A stretch of 9,403 bases of DNA from a virus (taxonomy: Duplodnaviria > Heunggongvirae > Uroviricota > Caudoviricetes), in IMG/VR virus record IMGVR_UViG_2531839146_000012. The stretch is one strand, 5' to 3'. Position 1 is the first letter of the stretch. Each line of letters opens with the position of its first letter. Shown piece by piece: positions 1,567-9,403 of the stretch. The translations under genes were made by a program, and so were the position numbers. The notes below the pieces were generated by a model, which saw nothing but the letters and a program-made list of their open reading frames with translations, searched no databases and had not been told where the DNA came from.

Positions 1567-1584
1567 CAGTTAGAGAAGCTCTTG

Positions 1585-1641
1585 TAGAGGCATTATTGAG
1601 TTATTGGTTTTAATATTTTTGTGCCTCTATGGGCTTTTTTT
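1585..1641 (+). terminator. Putative terminator region after the secreted-protein gene
   Basis: TAGAGGCA (1585-1592) pairs with TGCCTCTA (1622-1629), followed by GGGC and a 7-T run (1635-1641). The loop is long, so the structure is non-canonical. Confidence 0.35.
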
Positions 1642-1798
1642 GCCTTTTTGCAAAGTAGGAGAGAGCACAGGAATCGTTAAAATTAATTATTGGGGTATTT
1701 AAGGTTATTTTCAGGTGGTTTAAGGGTATTAAACTTGATTTAATTGATTAAAATATAAACAGATAGTCCTGTATCTTATTGATTTATAAGGTTATTTT

Positions 1799-1855
1799 TA
1801 AATAAAGGTAAATAAAAAATAAATAGCCATAAATAGCTATAAATACATCTAAATA
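1799..1855. repeat. Six TAAATA motifs at 10-11 bp (helical) phasing
   Basis: TAAATA starts at 1799, 1809, 1820, 1830, 1840 and 1850. Confidence 0.6.
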
Positions 1856-2275
1856 CCTTTATCCCTTCCCTTATGGCTAGATTGCGAGAAGTGCTTAACG
1901 CGATTTTCAGCGCCCCCCGATCTGGAAAATCCAGAATCCCCAAATATCAGCAAGGAATTTTCTTGCGTAATCAACATCGTTTTTACCTATTAAATCATCA
2001 CACAGAAAGCCTTTCTGTAATGTCTCTCACTAAACTTTCACTAAACACGAGAATGATCGGTTTTATGTCGGATCAGATGCTAGAAACAGCACCACGTCTC
2101 ACAAGGGCTGTAAGCGATGAAACCAGTGTTTATGCGGGTGCAGGTCAAAATATGGGCCAAAATCCATTTAACATAATAATCGTAATATGCACTAAGGAAC
2201 ACATAGAACGCCTTGAATTGATGTATCAGGGGAAAAGTGATGGATTTTTTACGTAGGAGCACGAGAGGGCTTCTG

Positions 2276-2303
2276 TTGACTTTTGTGTGCTATGAAATAT
2301 AAT
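2276..2303 (+). promoter_or_regulatory. Putative sigma70 promoter firing into the repeat region
   Basis: -35 TTGACT (2276-2281), 16-bp spacer, -10 TATAAT (2298-2303). No ORF follows. Confidence 0.4.
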
Positions 2304-2337
2304 TAAAGGTTTTTTGTTTTTATCGTGTGATGTAGTG

Positions 2338-2780
2338 GATTACACAGGGGGATAGATTAAATGGTGTTCTGTTTATACAGGTTTATTTGTTAGATCAACA
2401 ATTTGGCATTTCTAAACAGATGTTTGAACGTTGCCAAATGTATTGACAACACAAGAAAAGGGCTTGCTATGCCACGCATTACACGGAATAAGGCTGTAAA
2501 AACAAAATAAATTTTAAAATTTGCACAAACGAGAAAACTCGTTCAGAAACAAGCAGAACAATTTTTAGCCAACAATTTCTGATGGTGCTCTGTAAACCGC
2601 ATTACACAAGGCTTTGCGAAAGTGATGTAAAAGTGAAGAAAGCTAACATTGCACTTTGAAGCCATTTTTCATTGGATTTTTTAGTAGGGAATTACACAGG
2701 GAATAGAGAGCATTATTCTATGATTTACACAGGGAATATAGGGGATTATGGCACACACATAGAAAGGCATTACACAGAGT
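2338..2780 (+). repeat. Dispersed direct repeats of G(C/G)ATTACAC(A/G)GG (iteron-like), six copies
   Basis: ATTACAC cores at 2339, 2478, 2601, 2691, 2769 and a TTTACAC variant at 2724, each preceded by G(G/C/A) and followed by (A/G)(G/A)G. Confidence 0.6.
2401..2439. promoter_or_regulatory. Nested imperfect palindrome ATTTGGCA...AAACA-GA-TGTTT...TGCCAAAT, operator-like
   Basis: Outer arms 2401-2408 and 2432-2439 are exact reverse complements; an inner palindrome AAACAGATGTTT lies between them. A TTGACA at 2443-2448 follows. Confidence 0.35.
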
Positions 2781-2808
2781 GAGTGCTATGTGATGATTGG
2801 TAGTAACG

Positions 2809-2843
2809 GTAGGTCACTGTGAGCTACCCCCACAGAATTCTGT
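2809..2843. repeat. Isolated copy of the 22-bp repeat core (GGTAGGTCACTGTGAGCTA) followed by CCCCC and a perfect 12-bp palindrome ACAGAATTCTGT
   Basis: 2809-2827 matches the tandem unit at 3028-3135; the palindrome at 2832-2843 is flanked by TACCCC on both sides. Confidence 0.5.
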
Positions 2844-2883
2844 TACCCCTATCAAGTCTGATACCCGATAAGTATAAATAACA

Positions 2884-2981
2884 CCTAGGAAATGATTTCC
2901 GATCTATTTAGGAAGTAACCTAGGAAGTGGTTTCCTACCTACTTAGGAAATGAGTTCCTACCTACCTAGGAAATGAGTTCC
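2884..2981. repeat. Four CCTAGG-GGAAAT-G-A(T/G)TTCC palindromic sites, the last three at 23-bp pitch
   Basis: GGAAATGATTTCC at 2888-2900 is a perfect odd-length palindrome; GGAAGTGGTTTCC at 2923-2935; GGAAATGAGTTCC at 2946-2958 and 2969-2981. Confidence 0.6.
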
Positions 2982-3006
2982 ACCAATACTATAATTAAAT
3001 AATATA

Positions 3007-3022
3007 AATAATATTCTTTATA
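3007..3022. repeat. Exact 16-bp direct repeat AATAATATTCTTTATA, left copy; right copy at 3184-3199
   Basis: Identical 16-mers at 3007-3022 and 3184-3199 bracket the 22-bp tandem array and its AT-rich flank; both continue with similar (C)TATAT sequence. Confidence 0.55.
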
Positions 3023-3027
3023 CTATA

Positions 3028-3135
3028 TAGCTCACTGTGAACTAGGGGGGGTAGTTCACTATGAGCTAGGGGGTAGGTCATAGTGAGCTAGGGGGTAGGT
3101 CATAGTGAGCTAGGGGGTAGGTCACTGTGAACTAC
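3028..3135. repeat. Five tandem 22-bp repeats (unit about TAGGTCATAGTGAGCTAGGGGG), each with a palindromic TCAC-N-GTGA core
   Basis: Units start near 3028, 3050, 3074, 3096 and 3118 with 22-bp period; the first unit is in inverted orientation (AGCTCACTGTGAACTAG). Followed by an AT-rich stretch with (TA)6 at about 3203-3214. Confidence 0.65.
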
Positions 3136-3324
3136 AATAAGACTATTAATAAAACTATATTAGATTATTAATTAGATCATAATAATAATATTCTTTATAT
3201 CTATATATATATATGATCTTTTGCCTTCCGGCGTTAGCTTCACTCTCTGGCAAGCAGCCTTACTCCGCTACCTTTCGGGCTTCGTGGCTGGCCCGTTCCG
3301 CTCACACCGAAAGCAAAGCGTTAC

Positions 3325-3366
3325 TTTCTTCGTGTAACTATCGTGGCGGTAACGCCCACGAAGAAA
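3325..3366 (+). other. Stable hairpin with GNRA-type tetraloop (GGCG-GTAA-CGCC) nested in a 9-bp outer stem
   Basis: TTTCTTCGTG (3325-3334) pairs with CACGAAGAAA (3357-3366); inner GGCGGTAACGCC at 3345-3356. Sits in a locally GC-richer segment (about 3216-3420). Confidence 0.35.
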
Positions 3367-3600
3367 TACTATTGCGCTGTGCGCAGTAAGAGTAATCACC
3401 TAACCAATCATACTGATTGCTTATGTGTTAACTCTCTCTACTCTTAATTACCCTCCTACATATAATAACTCTGTTATTCTCTGTAGTTGTGTAATTACTC
3501 GAAGAGAGAGCGGCTAAAGCTCAATTACACTCTGCTTTCCTCGTGTAATTTCACTAAGCCTCAATACAATTCCACTTCCTACTTCTGTAGTCGTGTAATT
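3330..3600 (-). repeat. Inverted copies of the ATTACAC motif (CGTGTAAT) plus a 20-bp direct repeat CT(C/T)CTGTAGT(T/C)GTGTAATT
   Basis: GTGTAAT at 3489-3495, 3543-3549 and 3593-3599; GTGTAAC variant at 3333-3339; one direct ATTACAC at 3524-3530. The 20-mers at 3479-3498 and 3582-3600 are near-identical. Confidence 0.5.
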
Positions 3601-3640
3601 GTTTTCGGTGGAAAAGCCAGAGGCGACACCGAAAGAGAAT

Positions 3641-3710
3641 TCTGATCTTATTAATCTTATCTATCTTAGTTAATCTTCTTACTTATCTTACTTTATCTAC
3701 TTTATTATTA
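3641..3710. repeat. Pyrimidine-rich cluster of TTATCT / ATCTT motifs (AGATAA on the minus strand)
   Basis: TTATCT at 3657-3662, 3683-3688 and 3693-3698, plus several ATCT variants. Confidence 0.4.
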
Positions 3711-4220
3711 ATAATAGCTTTATAAGCTCTCTGACGCAAGAAACAGCATTCAGGAAGGGAATCACCTTAGAAAAGGTGTTCTTTGCGTCATAATGTGTTT
3801 TATGAGGGATTCAGAGGTGTTTCATAACAGGAATGTATAGAGGATACTTTAGGTAATTAAAAATAAGGGGTCTAAATGCTTCTCTAACAGCATTAAGCAG
3901 GGTAGGGAATGGAAACGCATTGCCTACACATATAGGCTCACTACAGAGCTTTACAGAGCGTTTTATAAAGTGACTCTCTATCTTATATCTACCATCACCT
4001 TTTCATATACCTAACAAATACAAAATAAGCCCCTTAAATAAGCCTCTGGCGAGCTAAACAGCCATTAGATAAGGGAATGTATTGCTTTTATCAAAATCTC
4101 GTTAGAACGCGTTTTAGAGCGTTTTAGACAATAATGAAGAATAGCACTACACAGAAGAGCACGAATAGCTAAGAAAAAATGTAAGTACATGAAAAAGATC
4201 AGATTTTTTGTGAAAAGGTA

Positions 4221-4249
4221 TTGACAAATGTTTCTTTATATGTAATAAT
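4221..4249 (+). promoter_or_regulatory. Putative sigma70 promoter of the early operon
   Basis: -35 TTGACA (4221-4226), 17-bp spacer, extended -10 TGtAATAAT (4241-4249). It lies about 110 nt upstream of the first gene. Confidence 0.5.
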
Positions 4250-4359
4250 AGGTATTAGAGGGACAGAAAAACATTCTTCTCTAAATAATCAAAATCAATG
4301 CACTTTGAAGCCGTCAGGCTTGCAAGGTGTTTTTCTTTTAACTGAATAAGGAGTTTTTT

Positions 4360-4548
4360 ATGAAATGGTTTACCCCGGAGCACGTCATCTCGGCATTTAA
4401 AAAAGGTGAGCTTACACGCCATCAAGTAGTAATGAATCGTAATATGGCAAGGAGTCGAGGTTATCCAGAGCGAGCAGCTTGCTTCAATGAAGCACTCAAG
4501 ATTATTGATGAATTAAGAAAAAATGAAAAAGAATCTGAAACAGAGTAA
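4360..4548 (+). CDS. Small hypothetical protein (62 aa), first gene of the early operon
   Basis: AAGGAG RBS at 4348-4353, 6-nt spacer, ATG 4360. No family recognised. Confidence 0.6.
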   Translation: MKWFTPEHVISAFKKGELTRHQVVMNRNMARSRGYPERAACFNEALKIIDELRKNEKESETE

Positions 4549-4567
4549 AGAATAGAAGGAGAAAACT

Positions 4568-4735
4568 ATGAGCGAAACCAAGAAACCAATTCCGCGCACT
4601 TACCTACACGTTGACCCTGAAATCTTCAAGGTTTTATTTGCTGAAGCCAAGAAAAGGCAAATTATGGTCAGTGATTTGATGTTAGAAATCATTACTGAAG
4701 CAGCAGAGAACATCAAACAAAAAAAGGGTAAGTGA
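4568..4735 (+). CDS. Ribbon-helix-helix (CopG/Arc/MetJ-like) DNA-binding protein, 55 aa; below the ORF-track cutoff
   Basis: AAGGAG at 4555-4560, ATG 4568, stop TGA 4733-4735. Translation MSETKKPIPRTYLHVDPEIFKVLFAEAKKRQIMVSDLMLEIITEAAENIKQKKGK fits a beta-strand / helix / helix layout typical of RHH proteins. Confidence 0.55.
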   Translation: MSETKKPIPRTYLHVDPEIFKVLFAEAKKRQIMVSDLMLEIITEAAENIKQKKGK

Positions 4736-4786
4736 TCCTCATTCACTTTAGTAGCGCATTAAGCGTGATTTATAAGGAGATTTTTA

Positions 4787-5479
4787 ATGATTAATCAACT
4801 AACTTTTACAAAACACTATGACACGTTTGATAATGTATCAAAGATTTATTCTGATAAATTCCCTCAAGGAAAAGATTTAGATCTATTACATATTGTGCTT
4901 TATTTTCGATTCCTTAGTTATCAGGAAAACAACCTTAATTGTTATGAAAGTCACGAAACATTAGCTAAGATTTTTAAGTCTTCAGCGTCAACAATTAAAC
5001 GTAAGATAAACGATCTTAAAGAGATGGGATTATTAGAAACATCCCCACATCCTGATCCGTATATTTCATCTTTGATTTACAATGCTCTCCCTCTCACAGA
5101 TGCACATATTACTCCCCCAGGAGAATCATCACTCTCTGATCTTTCTGAGGCAGAAGAAGCACAGGAACAACCTAAAGGCCATAAACAGCCTTCTTTTGAT
5201 GTTCTTGATGATGATTGGGATGCGCCTTTACCGTGGGAGACGGAAGAAACACCTGTTTCATCAAGTGAAAAGGTAGCTAATGATAATGAGGAGGATGTGT
5301 TAGAGAATTTTGCCTCTCTTATCATCCGGGAGAAACACAGAAGAACAGGAGGATCATCATTTATAGACTTTGCAAATTCACTGGCTTATAGACACGGGCT
5401 AAAACGACCAAATGGTATTGAGGCATATTTTGCTAAGAAACATCCCAAAGTATATGAAGACTTTGATATTCCATTTTAA
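4787..5479 (+). CDS. Winged-HTH protein (HTH_36 / replisome-organizer-like N-domain), acidic linker, C-terminus ending EDFDIPF
   Basis: AAGGAG at 4774-4779, ATG 4787. The N-terminal ...CYESHETLAKIFKSSASTIKRKINDLKEMGLLE matches the usual winged-HTH pattern of phage/plasmid replication organizers. An acidic low-complexity linker (DDDWDAPLPWETEE...) follows; the last residues are YEDFDIPF, stop 5477-5479. Confidence 0.8.
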   Translation: MINQLTFTKHYDTFDNVSKIYSDKFPQGKDLDLLHIVLYFRFLSYQENNLNCYESHETLAKIFKSSASTIKRKINDLKEMGLLETSPHPDPYISSLIYNALPLTDAHITPPGESSLSDLSEAEEAQEQPKGHKQPSFDVLDDDWDAPLPWETEETPVSSSEKVANDNEEDVLENFASLIIREKHRRTGGSSFIDFANSLAYRHGLKRPNGIEAYFAKKHPKVYEDFDIPF

Positions 5480-7584: not shown

Positions 7585-8613
7585 ATGATTCTAGGTAATG
7601 ATTACGTTGATTTAGCTCCTCTGTTCTCTGCGCATAGCACTAGAAATTATCTGCTTTCTACTCTTGATTTTACGGATTCTGTAGGGGTTACATCTCATAA
7701 AGTGGCTGTTAGCCAACTGGTGGAAACTAACGAATCTCTGTTCAACAAAGAAACCTCTCGTTTCTCTTCTGAACATAACGTGACTAAGCGTGAACAAGGT
7801 AAAGAATATCTGATTGAAATCCCGTACTTTTTAAGGGAAGACCTGATCAAACCGCAGGACGTGCAAGGCAAACGTAAACCTGGCACTGATTTTCAGGAAA
7901 CACTCACTGATATTTATGCTGACTATGTTGCTAAACACAATGTTGCATTCCAGCGTACAAAAGAGAGCGTGTTGGCGGCTTCTTTGTTCTCTGGCAAAAC
8001 TTACACGCCTAAAACTGATGATGTTCTTATCGAATGGGGCAAGCTGTTTAACGTATCAGCTATGAAAGCCACTGTGAACGCTTCCAGCACTGACACCACG
8101 AAGATTTTTAAAGAATTTGATCAGATTGCTACTGACATTATCGAGAAAGCACAAAGCCAGGCGGCTGCTGTAGAGCGTATTGTTGTTTTCTGTAAGCCGG
8201 AAGCCTTCTCTGCAATTCGATTCTCTGCTGGTATGGCAAACGCATTCCAGTATGTAAGCCCACTGGAAGAGGGGAACGTTGTGTATCAGCGTCGTGACCT
8301 GCTGCCAGGGGTGACAGCGTTCACTATTCCAGGAACTAACATTGATGTTATTAAACTGGTAGATCCGCTACACCTGGCACATATGACCGCAGACGCTGTA
8401 GCGATTCCGAAGTTTGCTAAAGGCTCTAACGTATATCAGAACATCTACGGGGCTGCTTCCAGCACTTTTGAACTGATTAATGCCGATCCTACTGAGGTCT
8501 ATAGCTACAGCTATGAATCTTCTCGTGGTGATGCTGTGAACGTTGTTACAGAGAATAGCCAGATGGTTGTTAACCACGGTGTAGGCTTCTCCGTTCAAAT
8601 CACTGTTAAATAA
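7585..8613 (+). CDS. Putative phage major capsid protein, T7 gp10-like (342 aa)
   Basis: AAAAGGA RBS, ATG 7585. By eye, the segment AVERIVVFCKPEAFSAIRFSAGMANAFQYVSPLEEGNV aligns with T7 gp10 ...ADRVFYCDPDSYSAILAALMPNAANYAALIDPEKGSI (shared R, C-x-P, SAI, M-x-NA-x-x-Y, P-x-E-x-G) at a similar position in a protein of near-identical length (342 vs 345 aa; T7 sequence from memory). Followed by a strong terminator. Confidence 0.6.
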   Translation: MILGNDYVDLAPLFSAHSTRNYLLSTLDFTDSVGVTSHKVAVSQLVETNESLFNKETSRFSSEHNVTKREQGKEYLIEIPYFLREDLIKPQDVQGKRKPGTDFQETLTDIYADYVAKHNVAFQRTKESVLAASLFSGKTYTPKTDDVLIEWGKLFNVSAMKATVNASSTDTTKIFKEFDQIATDIIEKAQSQAAAVERIVVFCKPEAFSAIRFSAGMANAFQYVSPLEEGNVVYQRRDLLPGVTAFTIPGTNIDVIKLVDPLHLAHMTADAVAIPKFAKGSNVYQNIYGAASSTFELINADPTEVYSYSYESSRGDAVNVVTENSQMVVNHGVGFSVQITVK

Positions 8614-8916: not shown

Positions 8917-9183
8917 ATGTTAGAAATTAACACTTCTAAAATTAAGAACACAGTTACATTTAGTGTAGATAAAGACAGCTTGAAAAAAGCGAAAGACTCT
9001 ATTACAGGCTTAAAGGAATTCGCAGAAAACATCAAGCCAGCTAAATTAAGGTTTGATAATGTCACTAAAGGCTATAAGAAAGCACAAAGTGAAGTAGATA
9101 AGATTACTAAAAAGCAAGCCCAGGCTGATAAAGCTAATGCTAAAGCACAATTAGCCGCTCAACGTGTAGTTGCAAGAGGGTAA
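8917..9183 (+). pseudogene. Lys/Ala/Gln-rich (coiled-coil-like) protein gene truncated by the IS1 insertion
   Basis: AAGGGGA RBS, ATG 8917. The frame runs into the IS1 terminal inverted repeat starting at 9179, and the stop TAA (9181-9183) is supplied by the IS1 end GGTAATGAC. Translation ends ...AQLAAQRVVARG. Confidence 0.5.
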
Positions 9184-9403
9184 TGACTCCAACTTATTGA
9201 TAGTGTTTTATGTTCAGATAATGCCCGATGACTTTGTCATGCAGCTCCACCGATTTTGAGAACGACAGCGACTTCCGTCCCAGCCGTGCCAGGTGCTGCC
9301 TCAGATTCAGGTTATGCCGCTCAATTCGCTGCGTATATCGCTTGCTGATTACGTGCAGCTTTCCCTTCAGGCGGGATTCATACAGCGGCCAGCCATCCGT
9401 CAT
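9179..9403 (-). mobile_element. IS1 right end (partial; continues beyond the window)
   Basis: 9179 onward reads GGTAATGACTCCAACTTATTGATAGTGTTTTATGTTCAG..., the reverse complement of the canonical IS1 right terminus including the GGTAATGACTCCAACTTATTGAT inverted repeat. Confidence 0.9.
9194..9403 (-). CDS. insB: IS1 transposase InsB, C-terminal fragment
   Basis: Track [72 protein letters not shown] is the recognisable C-terminus of IS1 InsB; stop at 9196-9194. Confidence 0.9.

Follow-up and report, generated by a model that had tools for sequence, protein, structure and literature searches.

The island and its gene-free region

The analysed stretch, hereafter the window, comprises 9,403 bp of E. 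coli DNA and is bordered by two insertion sequences, IS100 at positions 1-215 and IS1 at positions 9178-9403. Between them lies an AT-rich island, which is present in 754 of 5426 complete E. coli genomes; 1031 of the 1032 places where it was located are chromosomal. Intact copies measure ca. 12.4 kb, adjoin a tRNA-Thr (thrW), tRNA-Gly or tRNA-Ser gene and carry a tyrosine integrase gene at the far end. CP4-6 of strain K-12, which also occupies the thrW site, proved to be a different element and was rejected as a copy of the island. The IMG/VR matches are mostly prophage calls from isolate genomes and are uninformative on the physical ends of the element, and no description of the island family was found in the searched literature.

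Concerning the gene content, a lambda-E-type major capsid protein (capsid E) is encoded at 7585-8613 and a Rep/DnaD-like wHTH protein at 4787-5479. Beyond the point where IS1 cuts the island, intact copies also code for a tape-measure-like protein of 612 aa and a Dit-like tail protein. Neither a portal nor a terminase was detected in the island. Relatives of the capsid protein were found only in islands of Enterobacterales, the nearest phage capsids being 23-25% identical. As it encodes its own capsid and a Rep-like protein and has no recognisable portal or terminase, the island looks like a helper-dependent satellite.

The copy in the window is truncated. IS1 breaks the tape-measure-like gene (8917-9183), of which the first 88 codons are left, the genes for the Dit-like protein and the integrase are missing, and IS100 abuts the left end; this copy is therefore probably immobile. 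As for the cargo, a protein of 183 aa with a signal-peptide-like N-terminus and a Cys-rich segment is encoded at 1015-1566. It varies between island copies, being present in some of them only, and its C-terminal half matches PHROGs 2578 and 14768 (E ~1e-17), to which no function is assigned in that collection. In L002, the full element spans positions 12001-24460. Regulatory and replication genes are mosaic between island copies, and one island protein, of 50 aa, has entries in 21,530 blocks of the assembly collection.

One segment of the island (4556-5125) is shared with muut and inny, two virulent phages of the phi92 type. Identity is 97-100%, with 100% over 4556-4794, which indicates a recent exchange between island and phage. 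This segment contains the gene for a 55-aa protein and the N-terminus of the Rep-like protein, the homologue in inny being a protein of 367 aa. The phi92-like phages (Justusliebigvirus) are virulent myoviruses of ~146-150 kb.

PGAP annotates no gene between ~1567 and 4360 in any relative of the island, and the repeat array described below sits in this gene-free, repeat-rich and AT-rich stretch of 2.8 kb (1567-4360). Further along the same stretch, TTACACAG(G) motifs were found at 2340-2790, 23-bp repeats at 2918-2981, five palindromic 22-bp repeats between AT-rich blocks at 3026-3135, inverted GTGTAAT motifs at 3320-3600 and ATCTTA repeats at 3645-3708. The region 1567-4360 is probably the replication origin and control region.

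The TAAATA array and its conserved module

On the plus strand, exact TAAATA hexamers start at 1799, 1809, 1820, 1830, 1840 and 1850, i.e. at spacings of 10, 11, 10, 10 and 10 bp, and the sixth copy ends on position 1855. The plus strand reads tTAAATAaaggTAAATAaaaaaTAAATAgccaTAAATAgctaTAAATAcatcTAAATAcctt here. Of 22 TAAATA hexamers on both strands of the window, six thus fall within 57 bp. When chains of any hexamer at 10-11 bp spacing were considered, the longest in the real window had six copies; in 300 first-order Markov simulations with the composition of the window the longest had three, a length reached once, and another 300 simulations at the local composition of 73% AT also gave a maximum of three. 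The six phased motifs noticed in the initial annotation are thereby confirmed. A search through viral contigs for runs of four TAAATA spaced by 10 bp brought up unrelated tandem repeats rich in AT, for the most part in giant-virus bins, and was uninformative; Rfam gave no match in the array region.

The six copies are units of one 10-bp tandem repeat, and not independent events. Tandem Repeats Finder recovers only the best-preserved part (1819-1845, period 10, 2.7 copies), and the units read TAAATAAAGG, TAAATAAAAAA, TAAATAGCCA, TAAATAGCTA, TAAATACATC and TAAATACCTT. Between units, the hexamer is 100% identical, whereas the 4-nt spacers show a pairwise identity of 25%, like random sequence. Counted as cells departing from the column majority, this amounts to none of 36 for the hexamer vs. 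13 of 24 for the spacers (Fisher p = 5e-7). Since simple decay of duplicated units would also have struck the hexamers, both the TAAATA motif and its phase have been under long-term constraint. This contrast makes an array of sites on one face of the helix, as proposed initially, the best-supported reading of the motif. Recent polymorphism, on the other hand, is not significantly lower in hexamers (5/36) than in spacers (6/25; p = 0.33).

As for the composition, positions 1760-1859 are 79% AT and rank 14th among the 931 windows of 100 bp. Taking as phased A-tracts runs of at least 4 bp without a TpA step that recur in a 10-11 bp phase at least 3-4 times, the array belongs to this class, with one AAAT per unit and a mean spacing of 10.2 bp.

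The array is part of a conserved non-coding module (1634-1949, hereafter type A), which is kept even though the flanking cargo differs. To its left stands the gene for the 183-aa secreted-type protein, or nothing; to its right, either a near-invariant non-coding sequence of 310 bp, as in the window, or a gene for a small serine recombinase that ends with its stop codon directly against the module. The AT-rich left part (1634-1798) contains AAGGTTATTTT-type repeats at 1699-1714 and 1786-1801 (repeat family D9), and BLAST matches in divergent E. coli islands start at position 1634, whatever the sequence further left. Between the array and the next block, positions 1856-1875 (CTTTATCCCTTCCCTTATGG) consist of decayed repeat units and a linker; in other strains, one to two extra degenerate units (TAAATC, TGAATA, TGAAGC) are found there. 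After a block at 1876-1921, described in the next section, the module ends with positions 1922-1949, where a hairpin (TCTGGA-AAA-TCCAGA, 1921-1935) is followed by CCCCAAATATCA (1938-1949), which is common to phi92 (as CCCCCTCAAATATCA) and to all satellite variants. Next comes a terminator-like hairpin (1950-1966), which lies on the minus strand and has the AAATATCA motif as its T-tail. In the recombinase-carrying variants, the equivalent hairpin contains the stop codon of the serine recombinase.

The ~310 bp at 1950-2260 are nearly invariant between strains and apparently non-coding. In other variants they are replaced by the small serine recombinase (179-183 aa), and a strong promoter-like site (2276-2303) follows them.

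The module is carried by 428 E. coli genomes, strains 20KM2222 and E423 being examples of type A. Copy number was surveyed in 34 type A loci from genomes and metagenomes. Four exact TAAATA copies were found in 4 loci, five in 10, six in 15, seven in 2 and eight in 3, and the length differences are always gains or losses of 10 or 20 bp. Such indels rule out that the array codes for protein on either strand. A coding reading was rejected on the same grounds, the two overlapping ORFs (1776-1943 on the minus strand and 1873-2256 on the plus strand) being moreover unannotated and without any family match. In ORF 1873-2256, which has no PGAP call, the few substitutions mostly alter the amino acid, and the stop codon is read through in one strain.

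Hexamer-breaking point changes (CAAATA, TTAATA, CAAGTA, TAAATT) are mostly located in edge units. These data bear on the possibility that the array is a neutral minisatellite, which arose as a 10-bp unit expanded by strand slippage in AT-rich, non-coding DNA and which hitchhikes with a functional block. The variation from 4 to 8 copies through unit gain or loss would agree with such an origin, as would the decay of edge units to CAAATA, TTAATA, TAAATC, TGAATA and TGAAGC, the similar recent polymorphism of hexamers and spacers, and the lack of the array in sister variants with the same gene set. However, the contrast between hexamer and spacer cells is unlike the decay of duplicates, none of the 34 loci has fewer than four exact units, and the internal units are almost invariant, so that we regard a neutral minisatellite as unlikely.

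A copy of a phage terminal-repeat boundary beside the array

The sequence to the right of the array had been described initially as a GC-rich island. It does adjoin the array, but that description missed the presence of a near-identical phi92-type terminal-repeat boundary, and the nature of this neighbour changes the most likely function of the array. The module was searched with sensitive BLAST against 50,697 phage records, and only one short piece of it matched phages, namely positions 1876-1921, with 93.5% identity to 56 phi92-like records; the version of this block in the L002 island is 95.7% identical to the phi92-like phages. In the records that begin at the physical end (phi92, W22, PHB05 and VEcB), the match is located at nt 318-363. 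The annotated left direct terminal repeat of phi92 covers nt 1-343, and the match therefore straddles the inner boundary of this 343-bp repeat. A terminal repeat of 342 bp was determined by PhageTerm for the congener BME3 (PMC12210895).

Local BLAST showed that positions 1896-1921 match the final 26 nt of the phi92 genome, in reverse complement, with 100% identity, and that positions 1876-1895 correspond to phi92 nt 363-344, just outside the left terminal repeat. The block 1876-1921 is thus a copy of the terminal-repeat boundary of a putative helper phage, with the phage end between 1895 and 1896 (GTGCT/TAACGCG). Taken together, both identities indicate that the island carries the junction found in phage concatemers between the terminal repeat and the unique left DNA, the place at which cutting produces the right end of the genome. 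In Klebsiella and Citrobacter relatives of phi92, the alignment extends to position 1949, the similarity past 1921 being weaker. The block 1876-1949 is probably a mimic of a packaging or end-cutting signal, and this phage-end mimic is more remarkable than the array itself.

The array and the phage-end copy are linked. In the window, the array ends 40 bp from the position equal to the phi92 genome end, on the side matching unique phage DNA. It is present in all 34 type A loci, always at 40-62 bp from the cut position (42, 50 and 62 in other strains), and was never seen without the phi92-type left half of the block. Within the island, neither a second copy of the cut site nor a copy of the phi92 left-end junction was found above the scores of shuffled queries or within 3 mismatches per 18-mer; an AAAGTAGG 8-mer (1651) and a GTAGGAG (2253) are similar to the left end of phi92, but at chance level. 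Phased TAAATA pairs were absent from the ends of phi92, from inny and from the complete A150 genome. The helper phages thus lack a TAAATA array both beside their own cut site and elsewhere, which implies that the helper terminase can do without it.

Many copies of the same island have neither the array nor the phi92-type left half. In type C islands the block reads ...aaatcggcgcagacgtgatcaatgt/TTAACGCGAAGATCAGCGGCGTCAGG...CAAATATCA, whereas type B combines the left half of type C with the right half of type A; yet another version of the block is found in islands of Buttiauxella and Citrobacter. Types B, C and D, all without the array, are presumably functional. Over 85 bp, the block of type C shares 81% identity with phages of the phAPEC8 type (Phapecoctavirus, the sister genus), the match lying at nt 273-357 of WPEC4 and, in general, some 270-360 nt away from the record ends. 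The KKP 3954 record has a terminal repeat of 309 bp, which starts inside the block, between TTAACGCGAA and TTTTCGG. At one and the same position, type A thus matches phi92-like phages and type C those like phAPEC8, and the block tracks the helper genus. A packaging-signal mimic would be expected to show just this, two island variants copying the same functional position in two helper genera, and the pattern is otherwise hard to explain.

Type C matches were located at L133 (7633-7715) and also at L134, L136, L142, L146 and L147, and type B at L007 and L140. Type B looks like a recombinant of A and C, with a breakpoint at TTAACGCGA, which is the predicted cut site. A search of the type B flank against phages gave no match.

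DNA curvature, binding partners and a candidate role in packaging

Curvature was predicted with three wedge models; a control A6 array, used to check the implementation, gave 27 degrees per turn in phase vs. 6.7 out of phase. The array peaks at 15-18 degrees per turn at ~1839, corresponding to the 98.6-99.3 percentile of the window. The window contains 18 peaks above the 97.5 percentile, and 15-31 of 200 composition-matched shuffles of the array (8-15%) reached the native curvature. Intrinsic bending, suggested by the initial annotation, is thus weakly supported by a predicted peak near the 99th percentile, which is not exceptional in the window. The strongest predicted curvature of the window is that of the repeat GCGTTTTAGAGCGTTTTAGA (4098-4130), with 23 degrees per turn at ~4119, some 100 bp upstream of a strong promoter-like site (4221-4249) preceding the gene for a 62-aa protein.

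A comparison of islands with unrelated left flanks (type A, type C and Citrobacter/Buttiauxella) showed in all of them a predicted curvature peak at or above the 98.5 percentile of the locus, 28-56 bp left of the cut position, with the three models. The chance of such a bend per locus is 0.01-0.09, and the product over the three unrelated flanks is ~1e-4 to 2e-5. In the phages themselves, the flanks show no notable predicted curvature, with values of 0.11-0.19 in the phi92 type and of 8-11 degrees per turn in KKP 3954. As the bend recurs in unrelated island flanks and the phage flanks are unremarkable, a bend outside the mimic looks like a feature of the satellite, and the TAAATA array looks like the type A form of this predicted bend. 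That the hexamer is so exactly conserved suggests that TAAATA is also read by a protein. An unwinding element was rejected, since the Citrobacter/Buttiauxella flanks are 54-55% AT and low duplex stability is thus not conserved, unlike the predicted bend.

Among the proteins that could bind such DNA, H-NS favours AT-rich sequences that contain TpA steps and A-tracts. For DNA of 79% AT in E. coli, the default candidate partner is still a nucleoid protein of the host, for example H-NS, and H-NS binding at the array is plausible from this composition. The array might then be merely AT-rich, mildly curved xenogeneic DNA that nucleates H-NS or StpA, helping to silence the island while it is in a lysogen-like state and having no direct role in packaging. 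The AT-richness of the 2.8-kb gene-free region, the curvature near the 99th percentile and the fact that no satellite protein co-varies with the array would all fit. In common with phased A-tract and H-NS sites, the array has AAAT every 10.2 bp; it differs from them by its short tracts (A3T) and by a bend of about two-thirds that of the control A6 array, which is no outlier in the window. Unlike H-NS nucleation sites, it has no match within 2 mismatches to the 10-bp high-affinity H-NS motif TCGATAAATT (tCGATAAATT-type), the nearest one being at 1674. Moreover, H-NS needs no exactly conserved, strictly phased hexamer, yet here the hexamer is invariant and the spacers are random, and the island variants B, C and D have no array. 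Silencing by H-NS or StpA is accordingly a possibility to which we give limited credence. For IHF, also named in the initial annotation, no core motif was found near the array.

The other functions suggested there, an UP element or a centromere-like repeat, fared worse, so that of the first interpretation as a whole the phasing on one face and the mild curvature stand and the specific functional guesses are not supported. The A/T-rich phased tracts do resemble UP elements, which would enhance a promoter, and type II centromeres (parC/ParR), including parC of plasmid R1, likewise consist of tandem 10-11-bp direct repeats that face the same side of the helix. However, no sigma-70-like -35/-10 pair lies in reach on either strand; a single promoter-like site was found in 1560-2000 (1714-1686, minus strand), vs. 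a mean of 2.0 in shuffled sequences, and none lies 40-60 bp from the array. Unlike in parC/ParR systems, the array is not at a promoter, no ParA, ParM or ParB gene and no partition ATPase/adaptor operon were found in the window or the full element L002, and the element is integrated, almost all its places being chromosomal. Both functions are very improbable.

A third possibility is an operator or filament array for a small DNA-binding protein comparable to P2 Cox, 186 Apl or a ribbon-helix-helix protein, made by the satellite or its helper and switching transcription or excision upon infection. The Cox boxes of P2/P4 and the Apl sites of 186 consist of about six short direct repeats at one-turn spacing, which are bound cooperatively and bend the DNA, and the P4 array senses the helper. 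The TAAATA array has the same layout, with an invariant hexamer, and the island encodes several small proteins, among which the 55-aa one, of ribbon-helix-helix type in our own reading, is 100% identical to muut at the DNA level. This assignment, however, obtained no match in Pfam, NCBIfam or PDB. The motif differs from those of Cox and Apl, the island yielded no recognisable Cox/Xis-like gene, and no promoter coincides with the array, which lies at least 1 kb from the tRNA end and outside any attP arm. Neither the phi92-like genome nor the surroundings of the shared gene in inny contain phased TAAATA pairs. Furthermore, a search for a partner by covariation showed that the alleles of the 50-, 62-, 55-, 230-, 92-, 136-, 121-, 70- and 120-aa proteins and of the capsid are independent of module type (A, B or C), and those of the 55-aa, 62-aa, 92-aa and Rep-like proteins of the presence of the array. 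An operator array is thus quite unlikely.

Three related candidates were rejected. An array of excisionase/Cox sites would be expected within ~200 bp of the attP core, whereas the array is ~1.0 kb from the tRNA end in L003-L005; in the window, it is 1.6 kb from the left edge of the island, truncated by IS100, and the integrase is at the far end. Replication iterons measure 17-22 bp, as opposed to a unit of 10 bp here, and the Rep alleles (94-100% identical, 50-60% identical or absent) vary independently of the array; better iteron candidates were noted at 2340-3600. Finally, the T4-type late-promoter motif TATAAATA, which an array of helper late promoters would contain, has no occurrence in the 114 upstream regions of a 146-kb phi92-like genome. 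TAAATA itself is barely enriched in these 114 regions (14 occurrences vs. ~7 expected), and the words that are enriched upstream of phi92-like genes are terminators, ribosome-binding sites and TATTGACA. In rV5, the late genes have a TggTAaAAtA motif, and homologues of gp55 and gp33 are absent (PMC3606486).

The reading that we favour, while holding it tentatively, is that the array is a satellite-specific architectural or protein-binding arm of a helper-mimicking site for packaging, i.e. for the processing of genome ends. Upon infection by a helper, the island would replicate, and the helper terminase would recognise the phage-end mimic and cut it at 1895/1896. The six TAAATA sites, aligned on one face just outside the cut, would bend the DNA or load a wrapping protein, and the bent or wrapped array would help the cutting and packaging complex to assemble. 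We thus infer from sequence comparison that the island may be packaged by phi92-type phages, that its copy of the phage end may be cut and that the array may contribute to this. In favour of this role speak the phage-end copy with its helper-specific variants, the linkage of the array to it, the constraint on the hexamer, the predicted bend that recurs in unrelated flanks, the apparent dependence on a helper and the DNA shared with muut and inny. The moderate curvature, reached by 8-15% of shuffles, the unremarkable flanks of the phages, the absence of the array from types B, C and D and from the helpers, the failure to find a co-varying protein partner, and the hexamer-breaking mutations that are segregating, with polymorphism not significantly lower in hexamers than in spacers, all count against this packaging role.

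Known packaging sites offer a partial parallel. In lambda cosB and SPP1 pacL, repeated, phased or bent DNA is found tens of bp beside the terminase cut, where the small subunit or the terminase assembles. The array likewise lies tens of bp to one side of the proposed cut. It differs from cosB and pacL in that the cut in the island is deduced solely from the identity to a phage terminal-repeat boundary, that the helper has no such array, and that no small terminase subunit or IHF site was found for the island. Satellite P4 carries the cos site of its helper P2, and PICIs carry cos or pac, so that the helper terminase packages the island. Here too, a chromosomal island has a copy of the packaging signal of its putative helper; but the putative helpers are virulent myoviruses of 146-150 kb with short exact terminal repeats, instead of temperate cos or headful phages, the copy covers the inner repeat boundary only, the other boundary not having been found, and the island encodes its own capsid protein.

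A more specific scenario, which we put forward as speculative, is that the satellite evolved a one-face TAAATA filament or bend beside a stolen helper-end site, and thereby beats the phage as a terminase substrate. Jointly with this, the module would characterise a hitherto undescribed satellite family whose members encode a capsid and have the virulent, terminal-repeat-bearing Stephanstirmvirinae as helpers, with end mimics of phi92-like (type A) and phAPEC8-like (type C) phages. No paper on satellites of phi92- or phAPEC8-like phages was found in the searched literature, which is not proof of novelty. We know of no characterised satellite signal for packaging from short exact terminal repeats, and the literature search returned none.

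Should the array be only H-NS-bound filler or a neutral minisatellite, it would be ordinary, and the phage-end mimic would still be of interest. The packaging-arm reading, for its part, provides a testable site, with a predicted cut at 1895/1896 and the array 40 bp away, and the natural allelic series of 4 to 8 copies, together with the array-less sister variants, could be used to ask what makes a good terminase substrate. Phages of the phi92 type are used in phage therapy cocktails. If the packaging-arm reading is true, the 57-bp repeat would belong to the handle through which the particles of large virulent phages are loaded with a very common E. coli island.
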